Source of the DNA: Aeromicrobium sp.
GTDB lineage: Bacteria > Actinomycetota > Actinomycetes > Propionibacteriales > Nocardioidaceae
Direction of reading: 5' to 3'
Assembly (NCBI RefSeq): GCF_047607065.1
Contig: NZ_JASGDU010000054.1
Coordinates: forward strand, 135-64,134
DNA length: 64,000 bases
Shown: one piece after another, positions 3,042 to 63,777 of the stretch
Layout: every line of letters starts with the position of its first letter
Numbering within the stretch: position 1 is the stretch's first letter
Notes under the pieces: model-generated
Database searches by the model: none
Seen by the model: only the letters and a program-made list of their open reading frames with translations
What the model was told of the DNA's origin: nothing
Translations under genes and position numbers: made by a program

Positions 3042-3150
3042 CCGGTCCCTGAGGTGCGAGGCCGCTCGCGGCCGAGCCTCGAAGGGACTCAAACTGCAAC
3101 TCATTTCGCCCTTCGAGGCCGCTCCTTCGTCGCGGCACCTCAGGGGCCGG
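3042..3150. repeat. palindromic repeat family, inverted unit pair (cluster A)
   Basis: ccggtccctgaggtgcgag-gccgctcgcggcc-gagcctcgaagggac, then the inverted copy tcatttcgcccttcgaggccgctccttcgtcgcggcacctcaggggccgg. Confidence 0.85.
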
Positions 3151-3165
3151 ATTCTGCCGACCTGC

Positions 3166-3186
3166 GGAGTCCCCTATGGTCCGCAG
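3166..3186 (+). repeat. second, diverged direct copy of the tRNA-Ser 3' end
   Basis: ggagtcccctatggtccgcag versus ggagtcccctatcctccgcag at 2984-3004, 2 mismatches. The two copies bracket repeat cluster A. Confidence 0.6.
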
Positions 3187-3238
3187 ACCGAGAAGGGCAC
3201 CGAATCCCGTGGATCCGGTGCCCTTCAGGTGAGGAGGC

Positions 3239-4330
3239 TCAGCGCTCTTCTTCGCCGCGGATGAAGGCTTCGAGCTTGGCGCGACCGAGGTCGTCGGGGC
3301 GCTGCTCCGGCGGGGACTTCATCAGGTAGGACGAGGCGCTCAGCAGCGCGCCGCCGATGCCGCGGTCCTTGGCGATCTTCGCCGCACGGATCGCGTCGAT
3401 GATGATGCCGGCCGAGTTCGGCGAGTCCCAGACCTCGAGCTTGTACTCCAGGTTCAGGGGCACGTCGCCGAACGCGCGGCCCTCGAGGCGCACGTACGCC
3501 CACTTGCGGTCGTCGAGCCAGGCGACGTAGTCCGACGGGCCGATGTGAACATCCTTGTCGTGGACCTTGCCGGCCAGCGGGCCGGTGAGGTTCGACGTGA
3601 CGGCCTGCGTCTTGGAGACCTTCTTGGACTCCAGGCGCTCGCGCTCGAGCATGTTCTTGAAGTCCATGTTGCCGCCGACGTTGAGCTGGTAGGTGCGATC
3701 CAGCACCACGCCGCGGTCCTCGAACAGCTTGGCCATGACGCGGTGCGTGATGGTCGCGCCGACCTGGCTCTTGATGTCGTCGCCGATGATCGGCACGCCG
3801 GCTGCCTCGAACTTCGCCGCCCACTCCGGGTCCGACGCGATGAACACGGGCAGCGCGTTGACGAAGGCGACGCCTGCGTCGACGGCGCACTGCGCGTAGA
3901 ACTTGTCGGCGTCCTCCGAACCCACCGGCAGGTAGGACACGAGCACGTCGGCCTGGGTGTCCTTGAGTACCTGCACGACGTCGACGGGAGCGGCGTCGGA
4001 CTCCTCGATGGTCTCCAGGTAGTACTTGCCGAGGCCGTCGAGGGTGTGACCGCGCTGCACGGTCACACCGGTCGGCGGGACGTCGGTGATCTTGATGGTG
4101 TTGTTCTCGCTGCTGCGGATCGCATCGGCCAGGTCGAAGCCGACCTTCTTGGCATCGACGTCGAACGCCGCGACGAACTCCACGTCACTGACGTGATACT
4201 CGCCGAACTGGACGTGCATCAGGCCCGGCACGGTGCCGGCCGGGTCGGCGTTCTTGTAGTACTCGACGCCTTCGATGAGGGACGTGGCGCAGTTGCCCAC
4301 GCCCACAATTGCCACGCGTACCGAACCCAT
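3239..4330 (-). CDS. ino1: myo-inositol-1-phosphate synthase
   Basis: ORF 3239..4366. [25 protein letters not shown] and later NVGGNMDF and [13 protein letters not shown] are typical of actinobacterial Ino1. The ATG at 4330 is preceded by AAGGAG. Confidence 0.95.
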
Positions 4331-4362
4331 GGGTTCTCCTTTTGTAGTGCTCGTTCTCGGGG

Positions 4363-4962
4363 TCATGCTGATTGGCTGGTCGTATCGGAACCGTCGACGT
4401 CGTCGTCGACGGTCGTATACCCACCTGCACGCTCGCGGTCGATGAGCTCGGTCAACCAGGCGACCTCGCGCTCGACCGACTCCAGCCCGTGTCGCTGGAG
4501 TTCGCGCGTGTAGGAGTCCGCCCCACGCCGACCCCGAAGGGAAGCGTCGCGGACGTGCTCGAGTCGCTCCTGGAGCCGGCTGCGCCGGCCTTCGAGAATG
4601 CGGACCCGCGTCGGAGCGTCGGTCCGCGCGAAGAACGCGAATCGCACACCGAAGTTCTCGTCATCCCATGTCGCCGGGCCGGATTCCTCCATGACCTGCG
4701 CGAAGTACTCCTTGCCCTCGGCCGTCAGGCGGTAGGCGATCCGGTTGCGGCGGCCGCGGATGGCGGCACCGGGGTCGTCGTCGGCGACGATCAGCCCTTG
4801 GCGCACGAGGCTCTTCAGGCAGGGGTACAGCGTGCCGTAGGACAGCACCCGGCCCCAGCCGAGCAGCGCGATCAACTGCTTGCGCAACTCGTACCCGTGC
4901 ATGGGCGAGTCGTGCAGCAGTCCGAGGGTCGCGAGCTCCAGAGCCGCACCGCGCCGTGCCAT
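4363..4962 (-). CDS. PadR family transcriptional regulator
   Basis: The N-terminus [23 protein letters not shown]...[17 protein letters not shown] is a PadR winged helix. It sits upstream of ino1, as does the PadR-like gene next to ino1 in mycobacteria. Confidence 0.85.
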
Positions 4963-4981
4963 CGAAGAAAAACCTCAACCA

Positions 4982-5002
4982 GATATCAGGAGAATGGATA
5001 TA
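4982..5002. promoter_or_regulatory. candidate operator in the AT-rich padR/ponA1 divergent region
   Basis: GATATC-aggagaatg-GATATA lies in an unusually AT-rich stretch (4963-5050). No experimental or comparative support. Confidence 0.25.
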
Positions 5003-5161
5003 TCGGAACGATACATCGGTTCGTTGTCTCGAAACAAGTCTGGGTGCCACAACAACCCGATAGGTTTGGTGCCTGCATCACGAACAGGCACACTTGAGCA
5101 GATTGTCCGCGACCGGCCGGGTCCCTCTCGTCGGCCGAGATCACCAGAGGAGGTGCCCGCG

Positions 5162-7555
5162 ATGGCGCGCAACGGCACCAGGAGCGCATCCACGCGAAAG
5201 GCCGCCATTCGTGACGGCATCTTCAAGTTCGTTCGAGCCATCGGCGGTGAAGGTCGGCCCCGGTGGGTTCAGGTTCTGCGATGGATCGCCTTCCTGACCG
5301 TGACCGGATTCGTGAGCGGTGCGCTGGCGTTCTTCGTCCTGTACCAGATGATCGACATCCCCGACCCCAACGAGGAGTTCCAGACCCAGACCACGAAGGT
5401 CTACTTCTCCGACGGGACCACGCTCCTGGGCGAGTTCTCCGAGCAGCGCCGCGAGAACGTCACTCTCGATCAGGTGCCCGCCTCGATGCAGGCCGCCGTG
5501 ATCTCGGCCGAAGACCGGTCGTTCTACTCCAACCGCGGCATCGACTTCAAGGGCATCCTGCGCGCCCTGCGTGACAACACGGCCAGCGGCGAGATCAGTT
5601 CCGGTGGCTCGACGATCACCCAGCAGTACGTCAAGATCCTCTACCTGACCCAGGAGCGGACCTACACCCGCAAGTTCAAAGAAGCGATTCTGTCGCTCAA
5701 GATCGACAATCAGCTCAGCAAGTCCGAAATCCTCGAGGGCTACCTCAACACCGTCTACTACGGCAATGGTGCCTACGGCGTTCAGGTGGCGGCCAAGACC
5801 TACTTCGGCAAGGAGGCGGCCGATCTGACGGTGCCGGAGTCGGCCTATCTGGCGACGGTCATCAACAGCCCGTCCTTCTACGACCCCTATACCGCGAGTT
5901 GCCTGGCCGACGCCGCGAGCGCCGAGTGCCAGGCCGAGACCGCCGAGCGCGACGAGCGCATCCTGCCGCGCTACAACTACGTGATCGACGGCATGGAGAA
6001 GTCCGGGGCGATCACCGCCGAGGAGGCCACGCAGTACCGCGATACCCTCCCGGCCTTCTCGCCGCGCGTCGTCAGCAACCGCTACGCCGGCCCGAATGGC
6101 CACCTGCTGAAGATGGTCGAAGACGATATGGCCAAGAACGACTTCAGCGAGGCCCAAGTTCAGGGCGGCGGCCTGCGCATCACCACGACTATCGACGCCA
6201 CCTTGCAACAAGAGGCCATCGACGCGGTCAACGACGTCAGCCCGCAGGGCCTCGACGGCCTCCATCAGGCGCTGGCGTCGGTCGAACCGGGCACCGGTGC
6301 GGTCAAAGCGCTCTACGGCGGACCGGACTTCCTGACCAGCCAGATCAACTGGGCCACGGCTGGCACCCAGCCGGGATCGACCTTCAAAGCGTTCGCCGTG
6401 GTCGCGGCCTTGGAAGACGGGTTCAGCCTCAAGACCAAACTCAACGGCAATACGCCCTATCGGATCGGCGGCGGCGCGGTGAAGAACGCCGGAGACAGTG
6501 GCGGCTCTTCCTACGGCACGATCGACCTCGCCAAGGCGACGGCTAAATCGGTCAACACCGCGTTCATCGACTTGACGGTGCAGATGAGTGACGGCGGCGA
6601 TGTGAGTGTCGGTGCTCAGAAGATCCTCGATGCCGCCGTCGACCTGGGCATCCCCCAGGAGACGGTCGACCAGATCGACCCGGTAGCGGTGACCCCGCTC
6701 GGCTACGCGCCGGTGGCACCGATCGATATGGCCAACGCCTACGCGACGCTCGCGGCCGGTGGCAACCGCGCGGACTGGCACGTCGTGCAGAAGGTCGCCA
6801 GTGCGGAGGGATCGGTGTTGTACGAGCACTCCGACACCACCGACCAGGCCGTTCCGACCGATGTCGCGGCCGACACCTTGTCCGCACTGCAGGGGGTCAC
6901 CAGTTCCGGCGGCACGGGAACGGCAGGTAAGACGGTGTGCCCGACAGCCGGCAAGACTGGTACTGCCACCGCATCGGACGCCTCCGGTGATGTGCGCACG
7001 TCGGCGGTGTGGTTCGTCGGTGCGACGCCCAAACTGGTGACCGCAGTGATGTATAACCGCGGCGTCGGCAATGAACAACTCGACGGCTTCCTCAAGCCTG
7101 CCTACGGCGGTGCCTACCCGGCCCGCACGTTCAAGGCGTTCATGGACAAGGCGCTCGACGCGGACGACTGCGGCAGTTTCCCGGATGCCGCCAACATCTC
7201 CGGCGACAAGGGCGAGACCGTCTCGACTCCCGCCCCGTCGTGCGGCCCCACGCAGCAGTTCAACGCCGATCACACCGGCTGCGAAGAGCGAACCGTGCCG
7301 ACGTGCTCGAGCGACGAGAAACTCGACTCGTCCGGCTATGCCTGCGTGCCGAGGACGTGTGCCGACGACGGTAAGACCGGCACCTACCCGAACTGCACAG
7401 CGACAGCGACACCCACACCGACAGCCACGACAACCTCGACGGCGTACGGGTCGGTGCATCCGTCGAATCCGTCTTCAGCAGCCGCCTGTGCGGCCTACGC
7501 CTCCGAGGGCTACACCTGGTGGGGCAGTCCGGCGAGATGTCGTTATTCCGGGTAG
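5162..7555 (+). CDS. ponA1: class A penicillin-binding protein (transglycosylase + transpeptidase) with a Cys-rich C-terminal tail
   Basis: ORF 4880..7555. I prefer the ATG at 5162 (GGAGG 8 nt upstream): MARNG..., then a TM segment. GT51 motifs are AVISAEDRSFYSNRGID and GGSTITQQYVK. Transpeptidase motifs are STFK and KTGT. Confidence 0.9.
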   Translation: MARNGTRSASTRKAAIRDGIFKFVRAIGGEGRPRWVQVLRWIAFLTVTGFVSGALAFFVLYQMIDIPDPNEEFQTQTTKVYFSDGTTLLGEFSEQRRENVTLDQVPASMQAAVISAEDRSFYSNRGIDFKGILRALRDNTASGEISSGGSTITQQYVKILYLTQERTYTRKFKEAILSLKIDNQLSKSEILEGYLNTVYYGNGAYGVQVAAKTYFGKEAADLTVPESAYLATVINSPSFYDPYTASCLADAASAECQAETAERDERILPRYNYVIDGMEKSGAITAEEATQYRDTLPAFSPRVVSNRYAGPNGHLLKMVEDDMAKNDFSEAQVQGGGLRITTTIDATLQQEAIDAVNDVSPQGLDGLHQALASVEPGTGAVKALYGGPDFLTSQINWATAGTQPGSTFKAFAVVAALEDGFSLKTKLNGNTPYRIGGGAVKNAGDSGGSSYGTIDLAKATAKSVNTAFIDLTVQMSDGGDVSVGAQKILDAAVDLGIPQETVDQIDPVAVTPLGYAPVAPIDMANAYATLAAGGNRADWHVVQKVASAEGSVLYEHSDTTDQAVPTDVAADTLSALQGVTSSGGTGTAGKTVCPTAGKTGTATASDASGDVRTSAVWFVGATPKLVTAVMYNRGVGNEQLDGFLKPAYGGAYPARTFKAFMDKALDADDCGSFPDAANISGDKGETVSTPAPSCGPTQQFNADHTGCEERTVPTCSSDEKLDSSGYACVPRTCADDGKTGTYPNCTATATPTPTATTTSTAYGSVHPSNPSSAAACAAYASEGYTWWGSPARCRYSG

Positions 7556-7697
7556 CGCGCTCGCGGGCCGACCAGCGCAGACGCTTCGTACGCCGTGTGC
7601 CTCCGCGCTATAGCGCAAAGCCTCGTCCGAGGACGAAACATGGCTGACACGAAGGAGTCCTAGGGTGACCACGTGAACGAGCGAAGCGAGCGAAACG

Positions 7698-9301
<1,604 letters not shown>

Positions 9302-11088: not shown

Positions 11089-11101
11089 GCAGCCACCACG
11101 G

Positions 11102-11142
11102 CCGGTGAGGTGCGACGAGGAACGAGAAGCCTCGAAACGACC
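11102..11142. repeat. palindromic repeat family, single 5'-shortened unit
   Basis: ccggtgaggtgcgacgaggaacgagaagcctcgaaacgacc. Compare 49967-50010, ccggtccctgaggtgcgacgaggaacgaggagcctcgaagggcg. It fills the 60-bp gap between convergent stops. Confidence 0.7.
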
Positions 11143-11148
11143 TCTCGC

Positions 11149-14232: not shown

Positions 14233-14249
14233 GAACCTCAGCCGGCGGG

Positions 14250-14376
14250 CTTAGAACGCGCGCGGATAGGCGGAACCCGGTCCCTGAGGTGCGAGCTTGC
14301 GAGCCTCGAAGGGACCTCACCGCGACGGGCTTCGCCCTTCGAGGCTCCTCGTTCCTCGTCGCTCCTCAGGACCCGG
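14250..14376. repeat. palindromic repeat family, left TIR + inverted unit pair (cluster B)
   Basis: cttagaacgcgcgcggataggcggaac-ccggtccctgaggtgcgagcttgcgagcctcgaagggacc-spacer-cttcgcccttcgaggctcctcgttcctcgtcgctcctcaggacccgg. Confidence 0.85.
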
Positions 14377-14403
14377 CTCGGCCGCGGGCCTACCCCCGCG
14401 TTG

Positions 14404-19850: not shown

Positions 19851-20045
19851 CGGGTCCCTCAGGTGCGAGCGAGGAACGAAGGGACGTGGGCGGGTCATTT
19901 CGAGGCTCGGCCGCGAACGGCCTCGCACCTCAACGACCGGCTCCGTACGTCGGTCCCTGAGGTGCGAGCGAGGAACGAGCGAGCCTCGAAGGGACCTACC
20001 TCGCACCTCAACGACCGGGAGCCGCCGGGTCCCCGAGGTGCGGGC
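19851..20045. repeat. palindromic repeat family, array of about 3 full + 2 half units (cluster C)
   Basis: cgggtccctcaggtgcgag..gaagggac; gggtcatttcgaggctcggccgcgaacggcctcgcacctcaacgaccgg; cggtccctgaggtgcgagcgaggaacgagcgagcctcgaagggacc; ctcgcacctcaacgaccgg; ccgggtccccgaggtgcggg. Confidence 0.85.
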
Positions 20046-22102: not shown

Positions 22103-22159
22103 CCGGTCCCTGAGGTGGGGGTCATTTCGAGGCTCGCAAGCTCGCACCTCAATGACCGG
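22103..22159. repeat. palindromic repeat family, truncated unit + full inverted unit (cluster D)
   Basis: ccggtccctgaggtg / ggggtcatttcgaggctcgcaagctcgcacctcaatgaccgg. Confidence 0.85.
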
Positions 22160-26459: not shown

Positions 26460-26460
26460 C

Positions 26461-29165: not shown

Positions 29166-29300
29166 CTTAGAACATGTGCGGATAGGCGCTGGCTGAGGTG
29201 CGAGCGAGGAACGAGCGAGCCTCGAAGCCTGCCACGGCTGGGTCATTTCGAGGCTCGCAAGCTCGCACCTCAATGACCGGCTCCGCCTATCTGCGGAATC
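29166..29300. repeat. palindromic repeat family, full-length composite with terminal inverted repeats (cluster E)
   Basis: Left end GCGGATAGGCG (29178-29188), right end CGCCTATCTGC (29284-29294), 1 mismatch. Inside: ctggctgaggtgcgagcgaggaacgagcgagcctcgaagcc, a spacer, then ggtcatttcgaggctcgcaagctcgcacctcaatgaccgg. Confidence 0.85.
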
Positions 29301-31032: not shown

Positions 31033-31202
31033 GCGGTCCCTGAGGTGCACCCTTCGAGGCCGCTCGTTCCTCGCGGTACCTCAGGACCCGCGCAAGCACA
31101 CTGGTCCCTGAGGTGCGAGCTTGCGAGCCTCTAAGGGACCTACCACGGCGGGCTTCGTGGCTGAAAGCTCGCACCTCAATGACCGGTTCCGCCTATCTGC
31201 GG
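31033..31202. repeat. palindromic repeat family, two unit pairs + right TIR (cluster F)
   Basis: gcggtccctgaggtgcacccttcgaggccgctcgttcctcgcggtacctcaggaccc; ctggtccctgaggtgcgagcttgcgagcctctaagggacc; ...aaagctcgcacctcaatgaccggttCCGCCTATCTGCGG. Confidence 0.85.
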
Positions 31203-33183: not shown

Positions 33184-33395
33184 GTGCCGAAGATAGGTCC
33201 GCTGGCTGAGGTGCGCCCTTCGAGGCCGCTCGTTCCTCGCGGTACCTCAGGACCCGCGAGGAACGAGCGAGCCGGGTCCTGAGGTGCGAGGAGCGGTCCC
33301 TGAGGTGTGAGGCCGCTCGCGGCCGAGCCTCGAAGGGTGAAGCCTGCCGTAGGTGGATCATTTCGAGGCTCGCAAGCTCGCACCTCAGGGACCGG
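33184..33395. repeat. palindromic repeat family, array of about 3 full + 3 partial units (cluster G)
   Basis: Degenerate left end gtgccgaagataggtccgctggctgaggtgcg. Then cccttcgaggccgctcgttcctcgcggtacctcaggaccc; gggtcctgaggtgcgaggagc; ggtccctgaggtgtgaggccgctcgcggccgagcctcgaagggtg; ggatcatttcgaggctcgcaagctcgcacctcagggaccgg. Confidence 0.85.
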
Positions 33396-42875: not shown

Positions 42876-42980
42876 AACGTGCGCAGATACGTCCCGCTGG
42901 ATGAGTCGCGTAGGCCGCAAGCGGTCGAAGCCCCGAATCCTGCATCGGCGGGTCATTTCGAGGCTCGCTGTGCTCGCACG
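42876..42980. repeat. palindromic repeat family, degenerate copy (cluster H)
   Basis: aacgtgcgcagatacg (compare aacgtgcgcggatagg), cgtaggccgcaagcggtcgaagcc, gggtcatttcgaggctcgctgtgctcgcacgg. Confidence 0.45.
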
Positions 42981-44272: not shown

Positions 44273-44339
44273 CCGGTCGTTGAGGCGCGCCCTTCGAGGC
44301 AGGGACCGGACTCCCCGCGCCCGAGCCTCGAAGGGCGAA
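44273..44339. repeat. palindromic repeat family, diverged units (cluster I)
   Basis: ccggtcgttgaggcgcgcccttcgaggcagggaccgg ... cccgagcctcgaagggcgaa. Confidence 0.6.
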
Positions 44340-47178: not shown

Positions 47179-47222
47179 GGTCCCTGAGGTGCGAGGAGCT
47201 TGCGACGAGCCTCGAAGGGACC
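47179..47222. repeat. palindromic repeat family, single complete unit (cluster J)
   Basis: ggtccctgaggtgcgag-gagcttgcgac-gagcctcgaagggacc, sitting between two convergent stop codons (47169 and 47237). Confidence 0.85.
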
Positions 47223-49904: not shown

Positions 49905-49910
49905 GCACCC

Positions 49911-50084
49911 GGTGCCTGAGCCTCGAAGGGACCCACCTCAGCCAGCGGACCTCCCCGCGCGCCAGGCCGGTCCCTGAGGTGCGACGAGGAACGAGGAGCC
50001 TCGAAGGGCGAAGCCTGCGGTGGTGGTCATTTCGAGGCTCGCAAGCTCGCACCTCAACGACCGGCTCCGCCTATCTGCGGAATC
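49911..50084. repeat. palindromic repeat family, several units + right TIR (cluster K)
   Basis: gagcctcgaagggacccacctcagccagcggacc; ccggtccctgaggtgcgacgaggaacgaggagcctcgaagggcg; ggtcatttcgaggctcgcaagctcgcacctcaacgaccggctCCGCCTATCTGCGGaatc. Confidence 0.85.
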
Positions 50085-51560: not shown

Positions 51561-51634
51561 CGGGGTGTGGCGCAGCTTGGTAGCGCGCATCGTTCGGGAC
51601 GATGAGGCCGCAGGTTCAAATCCTGTCACCCCGA
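51561..51634 (+). tRNA. tRNA-Pro (anticodon CGG)
   Basis: Hand-folded. Acceptor CGGGGTG/CACCCCG plus A. D arm GCGC-AGCTTGGTA-GCGC. Anticodon arm CATCG-TTCGGGA-CGATG. T arm GCAGG-TTCAAAT-CCTGT. CCA is not encoded. Confidence 0.95.
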
Positions 51635-51650
51635 CGTTGCCCTCAGGGGC

Positions 51651-53265: not shown

Positions 53266-53274
53266 GAGGATCTC

Positions 53275-53400
53275 TGCCCCTGAGGTGCGAGGAGCTTGCG
53301 GCCTCGAAGGGCGAAGGGATCCCCTCGAAGGCCGAAGGGACCCAGACAGCGGGCCGTTGTTGGGGTCCGTTCGAGGCTCCTTCGTCGCACCTCAGGGACC
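53275..53400. repeat. palindromic repeat family, inverted unit pair (cluster L)
   Basis: gcccctgaggtgcgaggagcttgcggcctcgaagggcgaagggatcccctcgaaggccgaagggaccc ... ggggtccgttcgaggctccttcgtcgcacctcagggacc. Confidence 0.8.
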
Positions 53401-53414
53401 GCGGCGGAACGCTC

Positions 53415-53927
53415 TTACAGTTCGAGGTCGGGGACACACACGTCGACGTCGCGCGAGGCGGTGATCTCCGTCGGGGCGGCCTCGTTCAGATCGGTGTAGT
53501 TCGGTCCCACGACCACGGTGACGCCGTCGCCGATCTTCACATCGGGTGCGACGATCTGCGGCGTGACCTGGAACTGCTGCGCTACGAGTTGCACCAACGG
53601 GTCCTCGGGATCCTCGGTGAAGATCGCGACCTGATCGATGGGGATTTCGCTGGTGCTGTTGGCGATGGAGCCGGCGAGGAAGCCGTGCCTCTGCAGGTTG
53701 ATGCTGACCCGGTTGGCCAGGCCGCTGCGCCCGGAGGCGTTGAGCACGTCGACCTCGATGAGGTTCGCGGTGAGGTTTTCCCCTGCGGCGACGTGGTGGT
53801 CGGTGCAGCTTGGCCCGGGGTCGGTGGTCTCGGGCTTTTGGGTCAGCAGGTTCCAGCCGACCATCGCCCCGCCGACGAACATCACCCCAGCGGCGGCCGT
53901 GACCAACAGACTCGTCGATCGCGTCAT
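53415..53927 (-). CDS. LytR_C domain membrane protein
   Basis: N-terminal TM, then VDVLNASGRSGLANRVSINLQRHGF...VTVVVGPNY, typical of the LytR cell-envelope-related C-terminal domain. Confidence 0.8.
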   Translation of the reverse strand: MTRSTSLLVTAAAGVMFVGGAMVGWNLLTQKPETTDPGPSCTDHHVAAGENLTANLIEVDVLNASGRSGLANRVSINLQRHGFLAGSIANSTSEIPIDQVAIFTEDPEDPLVQLVAQQFQVTPQIVAPDVKIGDGVTVVVGPNYTDLNEAAPTEITASRDVDVCVPDLEL

Positions 53928-54073
53928 CGGCGCGCTCCCCTCGTGTGTGCCCGTGTGTGCCCGTGCAAGATCACTTCGACAGTCTAGGTGAGCCAGTCCG
54001 GGGGTTTGCGGTCGTAGGGGGTCGGCTGATCGGAGGACTCGGCTGGGTCACGTTCCGTAGTAGGCTCGCGGGC

Positions 54074-55201: not shown

Positions 55202-55398
55202 TCTCCAGTGGGTTGTCATCCCTTTGGCCGACGGTCAACCTGTGTGACACCGCACAGACAGGGGGAACACAGTCGGGGAGAGGCGACGTCGGGGAGGCCA
55301 TCGCGAAATGGCTTGCCCTGTAGGCTCTGAGGGGTTTCTGCCGCAAGCGGCCTACGCGCTCTAGCCTGCGGCTCTAGATTCGTCCTTAGGATTCCACG

Positions 55399-57225
55399 GT
55401 GGACACTTCCCCCCGACCACAGCCGATGACACAGGTCATCCAACGTATGTTGTTCGCTCCGCTCGACGCTGTGCCGGAGGAGCTTTATGTCCTCACGTCG
55501 GGACAAGTCGCCTGCACCCGCACCACCGGATCTCTCGGCCCGTGGTCCAGTCTCAGCACATGTACGTATTTTGGCCGGGTGCCGGTGTCCTACGTGCAGC
55601 GGTGGACCACGGTGACGGCTGTCGATGTCGTCATGACCGTGAGCGGGCGAGGGCGAGTGCGAGTCATGGCCGACGATCACCTCTCAGGCAGCCGCATTGT
55701 GAGCCAGGAGGAGTTCGACAGTGAGGTTCCGCTCACGCTGCGTCTTCAGGCACCGGTGGACCGTTATCTCGAGGCCGGGCACATCTGGGTGGAGGCAAGT
55801 ACGACACATGGTCACCTGACCGTCGGTGACGTGCGCGTCGATGCGGTGGGCACGAGGAGGCCGCGATCAGCCTCCGTGGTGATCTGCACCTACAACCGGC
55901 CGACCTACTGCACTGCCACGCTCGCGCGGATCGCGTCGGACCCAGCCGTGTTGGACTTGATCGACCGAATCGTTGTCGTCGACCAAGGCAGCGCACTGGT
56001 TACCGACGCCCAGGGTTTCGGCGAAGTCGCGAGGGACCTGGGCGAGCGGTTGCATGTGGTGCAGCAGGGAAACTTCGGCGGTGCGGGCGGCTTCACTCGA
56101 GGGTTGATCGAGTTGCGCGGGTTGTCGCGGTCCGCAGACTTCGCGGCGATCCTCATGGATGATGACATCCAACTTGAACCTGAGTCGTTGCTCCGCTTGG
56201 TAGCTTTTGATGCCCAGCGGCGTGATCCGACGATCATCGGCGGTCAGATGCTCAAGTTGTTCCATCCATCGGTATTGCTGACGCACGGAGAGCAGACGGA
56301 CTTCTCCGATTTGCGTGGGGGCGTGCCCGTTGACCACGAGGTGCACGGCGTCGACCTGCTGGAGACGCTACCGGCTCGCCGGATTGACGTGGAGTACAAC
56401 GCATGGTGGTTGTGCCTGGTGCCCTCGGAGTTGCTCGACAAGGTGGGCCTCCCTCTGCCGATCTTCTTTCAAGGCGACGACATCGAACTTGGCCTGCGTG
56501 CTCGTGAGGTAGGCGTACAGACGGTGACGCTGCCCGGTGCTGCGGTGTGGCACGCGGACTTCGAGTTCAAGGACTGGGACAGCCCGATCGCGTTCTTCGC
56601 GATACGCAACGCACTCATCAACGCGGCCCTGCACACCGATCTCGTTCCTTCCGGGGTGGTGGAGAAGCTAGCTATTCGGTTACGACACCAATTGATCGAG
56701 TACCGCTACGGACTCACCGCGACCATTCTGTTCGCGATCGAACAGTTCCTTGCCGGTCCGGCGATCTTGGATGCGGGCGGCGCTGAGGATCTCGAGGCGG
56801 TCATGCGCTTACGAGCGAAATACCCGGACACCCATCGGTTGACTGCCGAGGAGGTGCGGGAGCGGGGTCTCGGCCATGTGCGGTTGCGTCAGGAGGACTG
56901 GGTCCCCGACGACGCGGATAAAGCATCACTGCGGCGGTTTATCGGTCAGTTGCGAGGGCGCGTCATGCCGGAGGTGGCTCTTCCGTCGTTGGCCCCGTGG
57001 TGGCAAGGGAGTTCCTTTCGGACGATCGTTGCCACCGACTGTTCGCAGGATGCTTTTCGCGTGCGCTCTCTTTCGCGGAGAGAGACTCTTCGGCAGGCGC
57101 GTGAGTGTCGACGGGTGTTGCGCAGGCTGCGTCGTGAAGGCCCGCGTGTCGTCGAAGCATGGCGGGCCGCGCGACCCGAACTCACCTCCGAAAAGTCGTG
57201 GCGAACGTTGCTCGGACTCGTCTGA
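55399..57225 (+). CDS. glfT2: GT2 galactofuranosyltransferase, GlfT2-like
   Basis: By eye it aligns along the M. tuberculosis GlfT2 sequence as I recall it: TYFGRVPVSYVQRWTTVTAVDVVMTVSGRGRVRV; VICTYNRP; GGAGGFTRG; LMDDDIQLEPES; RRIDVEYNAWWLCLVP; PIFFQGDDIELGLRA; TLPGAAVWH. The start may be the ATG at 55426. Confidence 0.85.
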   Translation: MDTSPRPQPMTQVIQRMLFAPLDAVPEELYVLTSGQVACTRTTGSLGPWSSLSTCTYFGRVPVSYVQRWTTVTAVDVVMTVSGRGRVRVMADDHLSGSRIVSQEEFDSEVPLTLRLQAPVDRYLEAGHIWVEASTTHGHLTVGDVRVDAVGTRRPRSASVVICTYNRPTYCTATLARIASDPAVLDLIDRIVVVDQGSALVTDAQGFGEVARDLGERLHVVQQGNFGGAGGFTRGLIELRGLSRSADFAAILMDDDIQLEPESLLRLVAFDAQRRDPTIIGGQMLKLFHPSVLLTHGEQTDFSDLRGGVPVDHEVHGVDLLETLPARRIDVEYNAWWLCLVPSELLDKVGLPLPIFFQGDDIELGLRAREVGVQTVTLPGAAVWHADFEFKDWDSPIAFFAIRNALINAALHTDLVPSGVVEKLAIRLRHQLIEYRYGLTATILFAIEQFLAGPAILDAGGAEDLEAVMRLRAKYPDTHRLTAEEVRERGLGHVRLRQEDWVPDDADKASLRRFIGQLRGRVMPEVALPSLAPWWQGSSFRTIVATDCSQDAFRVRSLSRRETLRQARECRRVLRRLRREGPRVVEAWRAARPELTSEKSWRTLLGLV

Positions 57226-57536
57226 CGGGTGCCGCACCGCGAAGGTCAGGGGGCATCCTTCCCACCGGGATTCATGCGGGTTACCTAGTGAGGCCGAGAC
57301 GCGGGCTTCAGGTCCGCCGATATCGCGTTTTGTCGCCGTAGAGTTGACCCATGGCACGCCGATCCTTGTACATGACGCTGTTGCAGCGCCATCTGTCCGA
57401 AGGCGAGCCGTGGACCGAGGCCTCCGAGCACGCGCTCAGTGGCGTGGCGCACGCCTACGACCTCATCAAGCAGGCCGTGATCGGTCCGCCGGCCCTCCGC
57501 CCAGGCCGGCGGTCCTCCTCCGCCGACCAGTGACGT

Positions 57537-58688
57537 TCACTCGGCTGTGGGATCGATGAGGATCTTCGCGTGCTTCTCGGGATCGCCGAGTTGATCGAAG
57601 GCCGCAGCGACGCCGTCCAGCCCCACGGTGCCGGTATGCAGGGGTGAGGGGTCGAGGGTGCCGTCGGCGAGCCACATGAGCACCTGGCGGAACTCGGCCG
57701 GGTCGTAGCCGAACGCGAAGCGGAACTCGTGTTCCTTGTTGACCGCCATGACCGGCCGGAAGGTGTCGGGTTCCATGCACACGCCGACGATGACGATGCG
57801 GCTCAGCATGGGTGCCTGCGTGCTGATCTGTTCGATGATGCCGGGCACGCCGACGCACTCGAAGACCACCGGACCCTTCGGCAGCGCGCCGGCCACCTCG
57901 GCGGCCTGGAAGGCACGCCACCAGGGCACCTTCGGCAGCCGGCGCAGCCGCTCCATCGTGGTCAGTCCTAGCCGCAGGTAGCTGACGGCATCGGTCAGGT
58001 ATCGCTTGTCGTCGACGAACTCGTGCCACGGCGATTCACGGGCCGGGTCGATGACGACATCGGCCCTGCAGCGCCGAGCCAGATTGCGGCGACCCGGCGA
58101 CGGGTCGCTGGCGATCACCCGCTTGACGCCGCTGGCCTTGAGCAGCAGGATCACGGCCAGCCCGATGGGACCGCAGCCGATGACGACGGCGGTGTCCTTG
58201 CGGCCGAGGTGGCCCTTGCGCACGGCGTGCCAGGCGACGGCCAGGGGTTCGGTCATGGCGGCATGGTCGAGGCTGACCCCGTCGGGTACCTCCATCGTCA
58301 TCGCCTCGGATACCAGGACGTATTCGGCGTAGCCGCCGCCGGCCTTGGGGGTGAGGCCGGTCATCTGCACGCCGCCGTCGGTGCCGAGGACGGGCAGCGA
58401 GACGACCCGGGTGCCGGCCTGCCAGCGGCTGCGGGTCTTGGGGCCGTAGGCGACCACTTCGCCGACGAACTCGTGACCGAGTACGACACGGTCGTCGGGG
58501 GTCATGAAGTCGTGATAGCCGACCTCACTGATGGTGTCGTGGGTGAGCTGGGCGTGGTGGCGCACGTGGAGGTCCGATCCGCAGATGCCCGACCGCAGCA
58601 CCCGCACGAGCACCTGGCCGCGGCCAGGCGTCAGCTCGGGCAGCTCTTCGACGGTCAGCTCGCTTCGATGGCAGACGACTGCACGCAT
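57537..58688 (-). CDS. zinc-dependent medium-chain alcohol dehydrogenase
   Basis: The ATG at 58688 gives MRAVVCHRSELTVEELPEL...GICGSDLH..LGHEFVGEV..VIGCGPIGL. Track ORF 57537..58916 is over-extended. Confidence 0.85.
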   Translation of the reverse strand: MRAVVCHRSELTVEELPELTPGRGQVLVRVLRSGICGSDLHVRHHAQLTHDTISEVGYHDFMTPDDRVVLGHEFVGEVVAYGPKTRSRWQAGTRVVSLPVLGTDGGVQMTGLTPKAGGGYAEYVLVSEAMTMEVPDGVSLDHAAMTEPLAVAWHAVRKGHLGRKDTAVVIGCGPIGLAVILLLKASGVKRVIASDPSPGRRNLARRCRADVVIDPARESPWHEFVDDKRYLTDAVSYLRLGLTTMERLRRLPKVPWWRAFQAAEVAGALPKGPVVFECVGVPGIIEQISTQAPMLSRIVIVGVCMEPDTFRPVMAVNKEHEFRFAFGYDPAEFRQVLMWLADGTLDPSPLHTGTVGLDGVAAAFDQLGDPEKHAKILIDPTAE

Positions 58689-58771: not shown

Positions 58772-59956
58772 GTGATGCTCTCCCCCTTGTTCGTGCGGAT
58801 CGCGCTCGCACTCGCCATCGTGGTGCTGACCGCGTTCTTTGTGGGCGGCGCGCCGGGGGGGGGTGCCGGTCCGGTGCCGCCGGCCAGCGCCTCCACCGCG
58901 AGGAACCCGGCGGCACCGGCTGAGCCGGCGTCGGTCGTCATCGGCGCATCGGGCGAGATTTTGCCCCATGCGCCGGTGATCCGTAGCGCTCACCAGCTCG
59001 CGGGCAATCGCTCGGGTGCCTACGACTTCGCGCCGCTGTTCGCGGAGGTCGCGCCGTTGTTGAGCGCGCCGCAGCTGTCGCTGTGTCATTTGGAGGCACC
59101 GATCAGCGATGATCCGCTCGATATCGACCGGCCGGCGGGCATGGTGTTCAACAGTCCGCCGCAATTGGCCGCAGCGCTGGCCGGAGCCGGGTTCGACGGC
59201 TGCGAGTTCGCGTCGAATCACACCCTGGATCAGGGCATGAGCGGCCTGCGGGACACGCAGGCGGTCGTGGAAGGTGCTGGGATGACCTATGCCGGGCCGT
59301 CGGCCGACGCGGCACGATCCGGGCAGCCGGCGATGCTGCGGGCCGGTGACCTGACCATTGCGCATCTGGCTTATAGCTACACAGCCTTCAACGACAGTAC
59401 CGAACCCAATGCGCGGGTGCCCGAGGCGGCTCCGTGGCTGTCCGGGACGCTGTGGGCCGCAGTCGGGGCCGCCGGCATTGCCGGCGATGCCGAGCGGGCG
59501 CGCGAGGCCGGGGCCGATCTGGTCGTGGTGAGCCTGCATTGGGGCGTCGAGTACCAGGCCGAGCCCACCGGGGATCAGCGTGAGGTCGCTCGCGAACTGC
59601 TGGAGGCCGGTGCCGTCGATCTGATCCTGGGCACGCACGCCCACGTGGTACAGCCGTGCGAGAAGATCAACGACCGCTATGTGCTGTACGGGATGGGCAA
59701 CTTCCTCTCGAATCAGTCGCCGAGTGCGGGCCTGCCGGTGCCGACACAGGACGGGATGATCGCGCAGGTGACGCTGGCGCTCGATGCGGACGGCGCTCTG
59801 ACCTCGTCGCTGGCCGTGCAGCCGGCGCAGGTACAGATTCCCGGGCATCGGATCCAGTTGGCGACGCCGCAGCGGAATGCCGCCAGCTACCAGCGGACGA
59901 TGGACACCCTCGGCTCGCTCGGCACCTGCGACGTCACTTCCCTCGCCGCCGCCTGA
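58772..59956 (+). CDS. capA: CapA-family (PGA_cap) metallophosphatase-fold protein
   Basis: N-terminal TM. Motifs ASNHTLDQG, VSLHWGVEYQ, ILGTHAHVVQP, YGMGNFLSNQ. Confidence 0.8.
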   Translation: MMLSPLFVRIALALAIVVLTAFFVGGAPGGGAGPVPPASASTARNPAAPAEPASVVIGASGEILPHAPVIRSAHQLAGNRSGAYDFAPLFAEVAPLLSAPQLSLCHLEAPISDDPLDIDRPAGMVFNSPPQLAAALAGAGFDGCEFASNHTLDQGMSGLRDTQAVVEGAGMTYAGPSADAARSGQPAMLRAGDLTIAHLAYSYTAFNDSTEPNARVPEAAPWLSGTLWAAVGAAGIAGDAERAREAGADLVVVSLHWGVEYQAEPTGDQREVARELLEAGAVDLILGTHAHVVQPCEKINDRYVLYGMGNFLSNQSPSAGLPVPTQDGMIAQVTLALDADGALTSSLAVQPAQVQIPGHRIQLATPQRNAASYQRTMDTLGSLGTCDVTSLAAA

Positions 59957-60112
59957 GTGCGCCCTTCGAGGCCGCTCGTTCCTCGCGGCACCTCAGGACC
60001 CGCTTGCGAGCCTCGAAGGGCGAAGGGACCCGCCGACGCTGGTGGCTTCGCGGCTCGGCCGCAAGCGGCCTCACACCTCAGCCACCGGAGGAGGGTCGCC
60101 GGTCCCTGAGGT
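59957..60112. repeat. palindromic repeat family, several units (cluster M)
   Basis: gtgcgcccttcgaggccgctcgttcctcgcggcacctcaggaccc; cttgcgagcctcgaagggcgaagggaccc; cttcgcggctcggccgcaagcggcctcacacctcagcc; ccggtccctgaggt. It starts at the base after the capA stop. Confidence 0.85.
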
Positions 60113-61647: not shown

Positions 61648-61665
61648 CCGCAACACCGGTTGCGG
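61648..61665. promoter_or_regulatory. candidate TetR operator
   Basis: CCGCAAC-accg-GTTGCGG perfect 7-bp inverted repeat in the tetR / 61696 divergent region. Speculative. Confidence 0.25.
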
Positions 61666-61695
61666 TCACCGAATCACTGACGTGGGGATAAAACG

Positions 61696-63456
61696 ATGAG
61701 CGAATCGCTGCCACCGCCTCCTGGCCCGTCCGGCATGCTGCCGCCACCGCCGGTCGACACCGCGCCCGCCGCAGGCGGCGCTGCGGCGGCCGGTGGAGGC
61801 GGGGGTGCAGCCCTGAAGATCGGTGCCGGGGTCGTCGGCCTGGCTCTCGTCGGCGGAGGGGCTTTCGGCGCGAAGGTCCTGTGGGACAACACCCTCGGCG
61901 GCGGCGGTCCGCAGCCGGCTGACGCGCTGCCCGCGAGCACCGTGGCCTACGCGCGGATCGACCTCGACCCCTCGGCCAGCCAGAAGGTTGCACTGCTGGA
62001 CCTCATCGACCGGGTGCCCGAGGTCAAGGAGGAGTTCGGTCTGGAAGACGTCGACTCCCAGGCCGACCTGCGTGAGGTCGCTTTCACCGACTGGTTCGAC
62101 ATCGAGGGTTCCTGCGACGTCGACTACGACGCCGACGTCAAGCCGTGGATCGGCGAGCGGGCCGGCATCGCGCTGATCGGCGACTTCGAGATCAGCGACG
62201 ACGAGCAGGACACCGCGCAGTCCGTCGCGGAGAACACCGCCCTGGTCATTCAGGTGACCGACGAGGACAAGGCGCGCGAAGGCATCACCAAGCTGGCGAC
62301 CGAGTGCGGGGTCATGGACGACCTCGCCGACGGTCTCGACCTCGACAACGAGGAGCCGGGCATTGTCTTCCGGGACGGCTTCGCCGTGGTCGCGGTGAGC
62401 CAGGAGGCCGCCGACGCCATCGACCAGGCCACGTCCGACAAGGGCACCCTGGCCAGCAACGACCGGTTCTCGGCCGACATGGACGCCCTCGGCGAGGACG
62501 GCATCTTCTCGGCCTGGTACGACGAGCGCACGCTCATGGGCAAGGTCGACGAAGCGCTCGACGAGTTCGGCGACGATGTGCCCGATGATGTCCACGACAT
62601 GGTTCAGGCCTACTCGAAGGTCGAGTCGGCGGCGTTCACCATCCGCGCGAGCGAGGAGTCGCTGGAGGCTGCGGGCGTAACGACGCTTGAGGACGGCTTC
62701 GAGACGCCCGATGCCGACAGCCTCGCGGGCCTGCCGGCCGACACCCTGGTCGGCGTGTCCATCGTGGGCGGCGGTCAGTGGATCGAGGAGGGCTGGGATT
62801 CCTTCGCGCCGATGGCCGAGCTGTACCTGCTGGACTCGTATGCCTGCCCGTACTACGACGACTACGAGTACGGTTACGACTACACCTGCGAACCGCCGTC
62901 GTTCGACGACATGGTCGACGACTTCGAGAGCGAGACCGGCCTGAAGGTGCCCGACGACCTGGCGACGCTGCTGGGCACGGAGTTCAACCTCTACGTCGGT
63001 TCCGAGGGCGTGGAGGACCTCAAGAACGCCGATGATGAGGCCGAGGCGCTGGAGACCCTCAACGCGGGAATCGAGATCACCTCCGACGGTGATGTGGCGG
63101 GTGTGTTGGAAGACCTCATGGACTTCGCCGGGGCCGACCTGGACATCACCGAGACTGACGGCGGTGCCATCATCGCCACGAACGACGATGCCGCCGAGAC
63201 GCTGGAGAGTGACGACGGCCTGGGTGAGTCCGAGACGTTCTCCTCGGTTATCAGCCAGCAGGACAACCCGATGGGCGGTGTCTACGTTGACATCGCGGGT
63301 GTGATCGACGCGCTCAAGTCCTTCGACGCCATTGACACCGGTGATGCCGACGACCTGGCATTCCTCAAGGCCTTCGGTCTGACGACGTGGCAGGAGAGCG
63401 ACAACGTCATCGGATTCAGTGCGAAACTGAGCTTCAACCCCGCCGACAGCGAGTAG
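61696..63456 (+). CDS. hypothetical membrane-anchored, highly acidic extracytoplasmic protein (DUF3352-like)
   Basis: Pro/Gly/Ala-rich N-terminus, one TM (IGAGVVGLALVGGGAF), then a 500-aa Asp/Glu-rich domain. The family assignment is from memory only. Confidence 0.5.
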   Translation: MSESLPPPPGPSGMLPPPPVDTAPAAGGAAAAGGGGGAALKIGAGVVGLALVGGGAFGAKVLWDNTLGGGGPQPADALPASTVAYARIDLDPSASQKVALLDLIDRVPEVKEEFGLEDVDSQADLREVAFTDWFDIEGSCDVDYDADVKPWIGERAGIALIGDFEISDDEQDTAQSVAENTALVIQVTDEDKAREGITKLATECGVMDDLADGLDLDNEEPGIVFRDGFAVVAVSQEAADAIDQATSDKGTLASNDRFSADMDALGEDGIFSAWYDERTLMGKVDEALDEFGDDVPDDVHDMVQAYSKVESAAFTIRASEESLEAAGVTTLEDGFETPDADSLAGLPADTLVGVSIVGGGQWIEEGWDSFAPMAELYLLDSYACPYYDDYEYGYDYTCEPPSFDDMVDDFESETGLKVPDDLATLLGTEFNLYVGSEGVEDLKNADDEAEALETLNAGIEITSDGDVAGVLEDLMDFAGADLDITETDGGAIIATNDDAAETLESDDGLGESETFSSVISQQDNPMGGVYVDIAGVIDALKSFDAIDTGDADDLAFLKAFGLTTWQESDNVIGFSAKLSFNPADSE

Positions 63457-63470
63457 GAGTAGGCCCACCC

Positions 63471-63566
63471 GGTCCCTGAGGTGCTGCGACGAAGGAGCAG
63501 CCTCGAAGGGACTTGCCACGGCAGGCTTCGAGGCTCGGCCGCAGGCGGCCTCACACCTCAGCCAGC
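63471..63566. repeat. palindromic repeat family, inverted unit pair (cluster N1)
   Basis: ggtccctgaggtgctgcgacgaaggagcagcctcgaagggac-ttgccacggcagg-cttcgaggctcggccgcaggcggcctcacacctcagccagc. Confidence 0.85.
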
Positions 63567-63588
63567 GGGCTTCGTAGGCCGAACGCGA

Positions 63589-63624
63589 CAGGGGCCGCCG
63601 GGAAGTATTTCCCGGCGGCCCCTG
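63589..63624. terminator. 16-bp perfect hairpin between two repeat elements
   Basis: CAGGGGCCGCCGGGAA (63589-63604), loop gtat, TTCCCGGCGGCCCCTG (63609-63624). No U tract on either strand. Confidence 0.55.
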
Positions 63625-63641
63625 CCGTTCGTCGCGGCCCT

Positions 63642-63777
63642 CAGAACGTGCGCGGATAGGCGGAATCCGGTCATCGAGGTGCGAGCTTGCGAGCCTCGAA
63701 ATGACCTACCACCGCAGGCTTCGAGGCTCCGGCCGCAAGCGGCCTACGCACCTCAGCCAGCGCCTATCCGCGCATCC
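63642..63777. repeat. palindromic repeat family, best-preserved full-length composite (cluster N2)
   Basis: Perfect 13-bp TIR: GCGCGGATAGGCG (63650-63662) and CGCCTATCCGCGC (63761-63773). It encloses ggtcatcgaggtgcgagcttgcgagcctcgaaatgacc, the spacer taccaccgcagg, then cttcgaggctccggccgcaagcggcctacgcacctcagccag. Confidence 0.9.

Follow-up and report, generated by a model that had tools for sequence, protein, structure and literature searches.

Intergenic hairpin repeats in an Aeromicrobium genome share a cross-phylum core with repeats that bracket GIY-YIG nuclease genes

What are the short palindromes that crowd the intergenic regions of an Aeromicrobium genome, and what has spread them? The question arises from a 64-kb stretch of contig NZ_JASGDU010000054.1 (assembly GCF_047607065.1, positions 135 to 64,134; hereafter the window), which has 70% G+C and belongs to a metagenome-assembled genome (MAG). 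The original prediction described 16 clusters of a nested-palindrome repeat here, resembling either repetitive extragenic palindromes (REPs) and bacterial interspersed mosaic elements (BIMEs) or miniature inverted-repeat transposable elements (MITEs). Our analysis places these repeats in a REP/BIME-like hairpin family whose core is found across phyla, where it brackets small GIY-YIG nuclease genes. These data suggest that the window units are sites for a nuclease of the Ssn type, which acts on single-stranded DNA (ssDNA).

An intergenic family of bulged hairpins

Both halves of the repeat are strongly enriched in the window: the half-motif GGTCCCTGAGGTGCGAG gives 25 matches at ≤3 mismatches versus 0.56 expected from dinucleotide shuffles, and GAGCCTCGAAGGGACC gives 22 versus 1.4. 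We extracted and aligned 26 complete units, built a covariance model from them and ran it unfiltered on the entire window. The model recovers the 26 units at 38-64 bits, plus about 12 fragments and degenerate or partial copies; every match with E < 0.2 falls within the 16 clusters and none lies in coding DNA. The family described in the original prediction is therefore real, its list of clusters is complete, its coordinates are good to a few bases, and no copies were found inside translated genes of the window. Its estimate of extent (about 1.9 kb, some 3% of the window) agrees with the 1950 nt, or 3.0%, that we measure. The clusters, originally described as most of the non-coding DNA at gene 3' ends, make up 54% of convergent-gap bases and about a quarter of all intergenic DNA.

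Placement is strongly biased. On a curated gene map, clusters are found in 9 of the 11 gaps between convergent genes, in 5 of the 20 tandem ones and in none of the 12 divergent ones. Most start 2-20 nt past a stop codon, the widest distances being 61 and 65 nt. Units can abut or overlap coding ends, since the stop codon TGA at 59954-59956 is the TGA of a unit's CCTGAG; a TetR gene of Rhodopseudomonas palustris shows the same overlap (locus L225, 1455-1465, CCTGAGG).

A forward unit spans about 45 nt and comprises, from 5' to 3', an outer arm of 6-7 nt, T-GAGG, TG (TA or AG in rare cases), 14-26 nt of inner sequence, CCTC-GA-A and the complementary outer arm; the columns GAGG and CC.C.AA are invariant in the alignment. 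In the corresponding hairpin, a 4-bp GAGG/CCTC helix is separated from the outer stem by a 2-nt GA bulge (3' strand) and from the inner stem by a 2-nt TG bulge (5' strand). At least four covarying outer stems occur (GGTCCC/GGGACC, GGTCAT/ATGACC, GCTGGC/GCCTGC and GGGTCC/GGGCGA). The loop length originally given as 5-19 nt is borne out (5 to ~19), but the invariant part is smaller than described, being T-GAGG...CCTC-GA-A only, with a variable outer stem.

Covariation supports this structure. Across the 26-unit alignment 82.7% of cells are paired, versus 69% in shuffles and 31-45% when the partner strand is slid; the covariation score is 0.291, versus 0.105 in shuffles and 0.04-0.08 in slid controls, with double changes in 8 of 15 pairs. 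The structure is kept in 141 model matches from other taxa, where double changes occur at 10 of the 15 pairs. With DNA parameters, single units fold at -9 to -15 kcal/mol into a form that retains the GAGG/CCTC helix, the GA bulge and the outer stem. At two inner pairs (GCGAGC/GCGAGC), 20 cells are G.A or A.G versus 5 Watson-Crick, counts that a tandem sheared G.A motif would fit. A ribozyme or kink-turn reading of CUGAGG...CGAAGG was rejected on sequence inspection, because GAGG pairs with CCUC, which leaves the hammerhead core base-paired, and because no 3-nt bulge lies beside the G.A pairs. Choosing a functional strand by G.T versus A.C asymmetry was also dropped, as the subtypes disagree.

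Units form 11 pairs, all running forward, spacer, reverse, which bears out the head-to-head inverted pairs of the original prediction. The spacers are 10-45 nt long and often contain CCACGG, and the partners are usually unlike in both outer-stem subtype and inner part. RNAfold predicts that a pair may fold as one long branched hairpin (-55 to -90 kcal/mol) or as two short ones, in support of the alternatives proposed originally. At about 5 of the 16 loci, an outer inverted repeat CTTAGAACGYGCGCGGATAGGCG ... CGCCTATCYGCG (also GCGGATAGGCG / CGCCTATCCGC) adds a third layer around some pairs. Two full composites of about 135 nt have it on both sides (29166-29300 and 63642-63777), and partial outer repeats lie at 14250, 31188 and 50066.

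These units are short (20-50 nt) imperfect palindromes in many copies, and all 26 complete ones are intergenic. With their inverted pairs, 3'-end location and stems kept by compensatory changes, the window repeats are a REP/BIME-like family of non-autonomous hairpins, correctly classed by the original prediction in that respect; its MITE alternative fares less well and is weighed below. Its statement that no transposase, integrase or REP-associated tyrosine transposase (RAYT) gene is present in the window also stands: Pfam annotation of ~50 window genes and a six-frame hmmsearch found no transposase, integrase, Y1 or GIY-YIG domain.

A core found across phyla and the genes it brackets

The units match no family in Rfam: in gathering mode the whole window returns only two tRNAs, the signal recognition particle (SRP) RNA and a thiamine pyrophosphate (TPP) riboswitch, and in E-value mode nothing is returned over the units of the window clusters and nine related loci. 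Nor is the consensus named in the searchable literature, where a literal sequence search of papers gave primer coincidences only. The original prediction, which recognised no named actinobacterial family, is upheld to that extent, but the core is not specifically actinobacterial. A scan of one genome per species with the pattern CTGAGGTGCGAG-N3-25-GAGCCTCGAA found it in at least 118 loci. Among the loci listed, the majority belong to Alphaproteobacteria (Bradyrhizobium, Afipia, Pseudolabrys, Rhodopseudomonas, Caulobacter, Xanthobacteraceae and others) and nine to Actinomycetota, including three Gordonia species (one of them a complete chromosome), Nocardioides, Janibacter, Tessaracoccus and two MAGs; single matches come from MAGs of Chloroflexia, Eremiobacterota and Chthoniobacterales, in part perhaps through binning errors. 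Carriers among the Actinomycetota include Gordonia sp. B7-2 (CP194566), G. namibiensis, G. lacunae and Tessaracoccus JAWKJW01. The novelty implied originally is smaller for this reason, the exact 22-nt core being common in Alphaproteobacteria. The alphaproteobacterial copies have outer stems of cGTCATC/GATGACg or CTCATC/GATGAG and form the same forward-reverse pairs. The kind of element is already known, and the window family is best read, from its sequence, as the actinobacterial branch of a cross-phylum core family of the form (outer stem)-CTGAGG-TG-(inner hairpin)-CCTCGAAGG-(outer stem).

Copies of the core are plentiful in other taxa, but not near the same gene in close relatives. Units are absent from 64 kb in total around the gene matching 20187-22094 in three other Aeromicrobium genomes, by regular expression and by the model at E ≤ 0.01. 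The matching proteins there are 80-87% identical to that of the window, which has a 100% identical counterpart in an Aeromicrobium sp. MAG, and gene adjacency at the repeat-bearing gaps differs. With 26 units in the 64-kb window versus none near the same gene in three congeners, this is a lineage-specific bloom, best read as a recent expansion in one Aeromicrobium lineage. The exact core also occurs on 22 viral or proviral contigs of IMG/VR (L123-L144), nearly all with the GTCATC/CTCATC type of outer stem known from the alphaproteobacterial copies, and such contigs are possible vehicles for transfer between hosts. One of them, L125 (72% G+C), carries three same-strand core copies ~1.8-2 kb apart with the outer stem CCCCTTGTC/GGGG. 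A blastn search of plasmids with one window pair gave no match. In the Tessaracoccus MAG locus L117, a second short repeat (GGTCCCTGATGCGAAAGTGTGTG...) is interleaved with the hairpin units (560-600, 630-660, 7285-7320 and 7640-7700), and paired units are separated by long conserved spacers (GTTAAACGC...GCAGGRACTGTGCCCAAA).

Two alphaproteobacterial loci, L018 and L075, place an open reading frame (ORF) exactly between a forward and a reverse unit. It encodes a GIY-YIG protein (PF01541) of 99-102 aa; the forward unit ends 20-30 nt before its ATG and the reverse unit starts ~25 nt after its stop codon. We then examined 80 metagenomic loci encoding GIY-YIG relatives, with the generalised unit pattern C[TC]GAG[GC]...TCGAA[GC]. 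In 77 a unit lies ≤220 nt from the GIY-YIG gene, and unit density there is 15.7x that of the outer flanks. Orientation follows the same rule: the closest unit is forward in 52 of 64 cases on the upstream side and reverse in 49 of 68 on the downstream side, and both sides are flanked in 55 of the 80 loci. The covariance model built from window units only gives 78 matches in these loci, clustered at gene ends and scoring up to 49 bits. An isolate genome, R. palustris CP019967, provides a further example, a GIY-YIG gene flanked by units with the TetR gene upstream. The flanked gene lies at 1501-1806 in this locus (L225) and at 1279-1578 in L018. The protein clade nearest to that of L018 is flanked by the window subtype (GAGGTG...GCCTCGAA) and other clades by GAGGAG...GTCTCGAA or GAGC(C/T)TGTCGAA; some genes that are 88-93% identical sit in unrelated contexts. 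The protein family is very large, with 10,495 cluster representatives at E ≤ 1e-3. Many database representatives are 115-170 aa long and betray read-through by peptides such as PQDE, HLRM, HPEVR and ILRGS (P0241-P0352); length statistics for the family are inflated because called ORFs read into the flanking repeats.

The arrangement has a published counterpart. Neisseria SsnA, a single-domain GIY-YIG protein of 94 aa (cd10448), binds and cuts the flanking hairpin NTS, CGTCATTCCCGCG..GCGGGAATC, only as ssDNA, and motifs related to NTS (SRM) bracket thousands of its homologues; in layout, NTS-ssnA-NTS is similar to insertion sequence and REP-RAYT systems (Chenal et al., Nat Commun 2025, PMC11893778). 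Like the Ssn/NTS system, the CTGAG...TCGAAG motif class comprises hairpins of 20-50 nt, many per genome, which in the metagenomic loci and in R. palustris lie in inverted orientation on both sides of a single-domain GIY-YIG gene of ~95-100 aa. The window units differ from NTS in being longer and nested and in having an inner hairpin as well as a GA bulge. The main text of the Ssn paper (PMC11893778) does not mention Actinobacteria. Canonical SRMs are almost absent from the GIY-YIG loci we examined and the published SRM pattern misses the window units, so the CTGAG...TCGAAG hairpins form a motif class of their own, one that the published search would overlook. Canonical NTS-like repeats (CGTCATTCCCGCGCAGGCGGGAATCCAG; CGTCATTCCGG...CCGGAATCC) do share some alphaproteobacterial loci with the CTGAGG...CCTCGAAGG class (L191 2687-2756; L061 ~740-790); one genome can therefore hold several motif classes.

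Other known palindromes resemble the window family in part. CGTC-tagged REPs occur mainly in Alphaproteobacteria, as head-to-head dimers often of unlike units, downstream of genes and with no dedicated transposase (Di Nocera, De Gregorio & Rocco, BMC Genomics 2013, PMC3733652). A CGTC (or TGTC/CCTC) tag at one end is followed by a stem that starts with AT; stems measure 8-9 bp and loops 4-5 nt, and the five phyla listed for these REPs do not include Actinobacteria (PMC3733652). The dominance of Alphaproteobacteria among core loci, the dimers and the downstream location, the latter two also seen in the window, are shared with these REPs, and alphaproteobacterial core copies begin cCGTCATCC or cCCTCATCC, that is, with a CGTC/CCTC tag followed by AT. 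The window units instead begin CCGGTC(C/A), which has an additional G and, outside subtype B, lacks the AT, and their helix has 15 pairs, two bulges (3' GA and 5' TG) and an apical part of 5-19+ nt that is often itself a hairpin. The text and supplements of PMC3733652 do not contain these motif strings. The Br-REP1 and Br-REP2 palindromes of Bradyrhizobium are likewise intergenic and are transcribed within 3' untranslated regions (Hahn et al., PLoS One 2016, PMC5082802). The same alphaproteobacterial genomes carry the CTGAGG...CCTCGAAGG core, but the Br-REP consensus (CCGGAATCTCGAGATTCCGG; CGAGATTCCGGG...CCCGGAATGA) is of the CCGGAAT type.

How the units may have spread

Several clusters hold one unit inside another. 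A host of the GCTGGC subtype at 33205-33275 reads GCTGGCTGAGGTG, is interrupted by CGCCCTTCGAGG...CCTCAGGACCCG and resumes with CGAGGAACGAGCGAGCC; a complete reverse unit thus follows directly on the host's GAGGTG and is followed by the remaining inner part of the host. The nested cluster concerned (33184..33395, in a convergent gap, with model scores of 59.4, 55.1 and 50.4 bits) comprises this host, GCTGGCTGAGGTG ... GAAGCCTGCC, split by the reverse unit 33210-33258 (-), then a 5' fragment at ~33274-33294, a forward unit at 33292-33343 (+) and a reverse unit at 33353-33396 (-). The same reverse unit occupies this position in a different host at 59945-60026, where the remainder reads CTTGCGAGCCTCGAAGGGCGA. 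In that cluster (59945..60112, also in a convergent gap, 61.2 and 52.8 bits) the host's 5' arm CCTGAGTG includes the TGA with which a gene stops at 59956, the nested reverse unit lies at 59956-60004 (-), the host's 3' half CTTGCGAGCCTCGAAGGGCGA is at ~60003-60026, and a further reverse unit at 60038-60089 (-) precedes a 5' fragment at 60099-60112. In two further places (31035-31095 and 22105-22160), a complete reverse unit directly follows a 5' arm that ends in GAGGTG. Tessaracoccus locus L117 shows the same junction at 7150-7225, with another nested unit at 765-835. In both actinobacterial genera, units are nested at the edge of the GAGG/CCTC helix, immediately following GAGGTG or preceding CCTCGAA. 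Two alphaproteobacterial loci (L181 and L191) hold a short GAGC..TCGAAG unit within a GAGGAG..GTCTCGAA unit. Some copies are near-identical: those at 22117 and 29238 match over the full unit, and those at 31044, 33210 and 59956 differ at 1-2 positions. Since different hosts hold the same insert at the same position, the nested junctions argue that single units inserted on separate occasions. Inverted units might also have recombined to give such junctions; no alternative to insertion that accounts for both flanks was found.

From the gene-repeat layout in relatives, which matches the Ssn/NTS system, the likeliest role of the window units, as members of the cross-phylum family, is that of ssDNA hairpin sites for a cognate Ssn-type nuclease whose gene lies elsewhere in the genome; we hold this reading with moderate confidence. 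The link to Aeromicrobium runs through the motif core, which is identical to alphaproteobacterial copies, and not through a gene in this genome. Several observations weigh against such a reading. A GIY-YIG gene was found neither in the window nor in ~60 kb of other actinobacterial loci (tblastn, hmmsearch), nor on actinobacterial plasmids or phages. No recognisably actinobacterial protein is among the best 120 homologues, or among the best 150 cluster representatives, which were screened for read-through peptides of the actinobacterial unit type. An actinobacterial partner was likewise not found in the viral contigs. The flanked proteins receive only PF01541 from Pfam and no model from NCBIfam, and their nearest PDB entries are UPF0213 proteins. 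The published SRM pattern, HGTCWYN(0-2)YYVSBRHN(0-5)WNVSBRGN(0-2)RNCYNB, has 0 matches in the window and fails on the T1, T2 and T3 example units, though it matches canonical NTS. The tracking of unit subtype with protein clade is confounded by host phylogeny, and the association could run in the reverse direction, with nuclease genes homing into pre-existing repeat pairs.

The alternatives that appeal to a transposase, a MITE or selection by the host are less well supported than the Ssn-related reading. In habit, the window units closely resemble the REPs and BIMEs (REPINs) of Enterobacteria and Pseudomonas: they too form inverted pairs of unlike subtypes, comparable to the Y and Z REPs of E. 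coli BIMEs, lie in mosaic clusters at 3' ends and can fold as long or short hairpins. By analogy, the partner enzyme seen in relatives would also be of a kind that acts on ssDNA hairpins. Mobilisation as classical REPs or REPINs by a RAYT, an HUH Y1 transposase encoded elsewhere in the genome, would account for short imperfect palindromes of this arrangement, and the ~50 window genes without a Y1_Tnp domain are only those of the window. RAYT-associated REPs are, however, defined by a conserved 5' GT[AG]G foot (PMC3733652, PMC6006769), whereas the window units begin CCGGTCCC, CCGGTCAT, GCGCTGGC or GCGGGTCC and their alignment contains no GTAG or GTGG. The gene bracketed in relatives with the identical core encodes a GIY-YIG nuclease of ~100 aa, not an HUH Y1 enzyme, and the host phylum is another. 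Because of the missing foot and this nuclease, a RAYT is probably the wrong partner, and we give its involvement little chance. A MITE of ~135 bp, derived by deletion from a DDE-type insertion sequence and mobilised by the transposase of that element through the terminal inverted repeats GCGGATAGGCG / CGCCTATCCGC, would explain the size and outer repeats of the full composites at 29166-29300 and 63642-63777, as well as the partial outer repeats at the three loci named above. Yet that repeat is found at only about 5 of 16 loci, the flanks show no target-site duplication, the window holds no insertion sequence, and 45-nt units occur singly (11102, 47179) and nested. The part conserved across phyla is the inner hairpin core rather than the outer repeat, and a MITE origin is accordingly very improbable.

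The strict 3'-end placement, with none of the 12 divergent, promoter-only gaps occupied and most clusters within ~20 nt of stop codons, together with the very stable hairpins, would also suit RNA elements selected by the host as factor-independent terminators or 3' mRNA stabilisers, rather than mobile DNA. Such elements would not readily explain the lack of a U-tract after the hairpins, the occurrence of both orientations, fragments and nested copies, or the missing units in matching regions of three congeneric genomes. An identical 22-nt core in distant phyla is hard to square with local selection of terminators, and for the related motif class the partner enzyme described in the literature works on ssDNA, not RNA; we consider a purely host-selected origin distinctly unlikely. 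The units could instead be relics, spread by or arriving with an enzyme since lost, and now inert and decaying. Many copies are truncated, internally deleted or degenerate (19853, 42893, 44272, 31145), no partner gene was found in the actinobacterial sequences searched, and 19% of genomes with >200 motifs have no Ssn homologue (PMC11893778). Near-identical copies suggest recent copying or gene conversion, however, and outer-stem pairing has been maintained by compensatory change; we consider the relic reading unlikely.

If the Ssn-type reading is correct, a candidate nuclease encoded outside the window would act on the units as ssDNA hairpins, and its activity on ssDNA in replication or recombination intermediates would spread them, directly or indirectly. 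Paired units would then be gene-less derivatives of a forward-gene-reverse cassette. Once settled, units would serve as strong hairpins at 3' ends that could affect termination, mRNA 3' stability and local recombination; this secondary role is likely on the predicted folds, as a side effect and not the origin. A bolder, joint proposal, which we regard as speculative and rather doubtful as a whole, is that the CTGAG...TCGAAG hairpins constitute a distinct, undescribed specificity class of nuclease-repeat pairs that crossed from Alphaproteobacteria into several actinobacterial genera, its single ~45-nt units moving by themselves into the apices of other hairpins, at the GAGG/CCTC helix boundary that follows GAGGTG. 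The enzyme would be a horizontally acquired Ssn-type nuclease specific for bulged hairpins, or one of another kind should complete actinobacterial genomes lack a GIY-YIG partner.

The clusters, their surroundings and their meaning

The remaining clusters range from single units to mosaics. The simplest are lone forward units: a perfect one at 47179..47222 (47176-47225 (+), 61.6 bits), which begins 10 nt past a stop codon, and one with a degenerate outer stem at 11102..11142 (11097-11145 (+), 56.4 bits), which fills a 60-nt convergent gap. Plain forward-reverse pairs occur at 3042..3150 (3041-3092 (+) and 3103-3151 (-); 60.2 and 57.1 bits), in the convergent gap between tRNA-Ser (+) and an inositol-1-phosphate synthase gene (-), and at 63471..63566 (63468-63516 (+) and 63518-63569 (-); 60.4 and 55.3 bits), downstream of a gene ending at 63456. 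The pair at 53275..53400, in a convergent gap, has a long spacer between its forward (53272-53317 (+)) and reverse units (53361-53403 (-); 38.5 and 50.6 bits).

Outer repeats enlarge other pairs into composites. The full ~135-nt composite at 29166..29300, in a tandem gap, has a left outer repeat, a forward unit at 29185-29235 (+), a reverse unit at 29238-29281 (-) and the right outer repeat CCGCCTATCTGCGG; its units score 57.0 and 56.6 bits and its predicted RNA fold reaches -78 kcal/mol. Its counterpart at 63642..63777 comprises the left outer repeat GCGCGGATAGGCG, a forward unit at 63666-63709 (+), a reverse unit at 63711-63764 (-) and the right outer repeat CGCCTATCCGCGC (53.0 and 46.5 bits; predicted fold -73 to -83 kcal/mol). 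In the composite at 14250..14376, located in a convergent gap and supported by its predicted fold, the left outer repeat CTTAGAACGCGCGCGGATAGGCGGAACC precedes a forward unit at 14276-14319 (+) and a reverse unit at 14329-14377 (-), both at 60.6 bits, and the right outer repeat is degenerate. A right outer repeat also ends two larger clusters. One, at 31033..31202 in a tandem gap, consists of a forward-unit 5' fragment abutting the reverse unit 31044-31092 (-), the forward unit 31100-31143 (+) and a degenerate reverse unit at 31145-31187 (-), with scores of 58.0, 53.8 and 12 bits. The other, at 49911..50084, lies in the convergent gap between genes annotated by Pfam as penicillin-binding protein and YqeY-like, and contains a unit 3' fragment (49908-49936), a forward unit (49966-50014 (+)) and a reverse unit (50022-50065 (-)) at 23.7, 64.3 and 57.9 bits.

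Fragments and decayed copies make up the rest. At 22103..22159, in a convergent gap, the forward-unit 5' fragment CCGGTCCCTGAGGTG is fused to a complete reverse unit (22117-22160 (-), 58.5 bits). The mosaic at 19851..20045, in a tandem gap upstream of an anthranilate-synthase-family gene, has a complete reverse unit at 19890-19941 (-) and a complete forward unit at 19949-19999 (+), at 60.4 and 63.6 bits; motif matches and sequence add an internally deleted forward unit at ~19853-19890, the 3' half of a reverse unit at ~20000-20019 and a 5' fragment at 20028-20045. The degenerate pair at 42876..42980, in a convergent gap, has a degenerate left outer repeat, a weak forward unit at 42893-42946 (+) (17.9 bits, E=0.013) and, by motif match, the 3' part of a reverse unit at ~42951-42980. 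One or more degenerate or rearranged units with the arms CCTTCGAGG and CCTCGAAGG lie at 44273..44339, in a tandem gap between two minus-strand genes (17.9 and 17.3 bits).

By Pfam, the ~50 window genes are housekeeping genes, including those for inositol-phosphate synthase, fatty-acid oxidation, rhamnose synthesis, a penicillin-binding protein and two-component systems, as well as dnaX, which lies at the left edge of the window (1-1554 (-)). RNA genes comprise SRP RNA (2649-2745 (-)), tRNA-Ser(GGA) (2807-2892 (+)) and tRNA-Pro(CGG) (51561-51635 (+)). The TPP riboswitch (26346-26471 (+), 60.6 bits) lies upstream of an operon for an energy-coupling factor (ECF)/cobalt-type transporter (26461-29105), which is probably thiamine-related. 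The region 53900-57600 has a lower G+C (0.66-0.67), a weak third-position G+C signal and no repeats, and encodes cell-wall polysaccharide functions (a pyruvyl transferase and a GlfT2-like galactofuranosyltransferase); it was possibly acquired horizontally. Two long ORFs overlap on opposite strands, 5141-7459 (-; 772 aa, ATG start, no Pfam match) and 5153-7555 (+), and third-position G+C favours the plus strand. Repeat clusters are also crossed by the long ORFs 63481-63891 (+), 14238-14690 (-) and 19895-20353 (-), all three almost certainly spurious.

Little has been documented on REP-like repeats in Actinobacteria, and here they fill about a quarter of intergenic DNA and stand at most operon ends of the window. 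They affect gene calling, through spurious ORFs and false hypothetical proteins, stop codons within units and database proteins that read into repeats, and transcript 3' ends may be affected too. The GIY-YIG gene-repeat layout itself is already published; what stands out is that the core spans phyla, that nested insertions share one position and that the motif class falls outside the published definition. The shared core and the GIY-YIG link suggest that Ssn nuclease-repeat pairing includes a large motif class missed by the published pattern, and that systems of this sort are able to cross phyla and to multiply strongly within one lineage. Should this Aeromicrobium encode a cognate nuclease, the enzyme would be a candidate ssDNA-specific endonuclease whose specificity for bulged hairpins is new, the type of reagent sought by work on Ssn.

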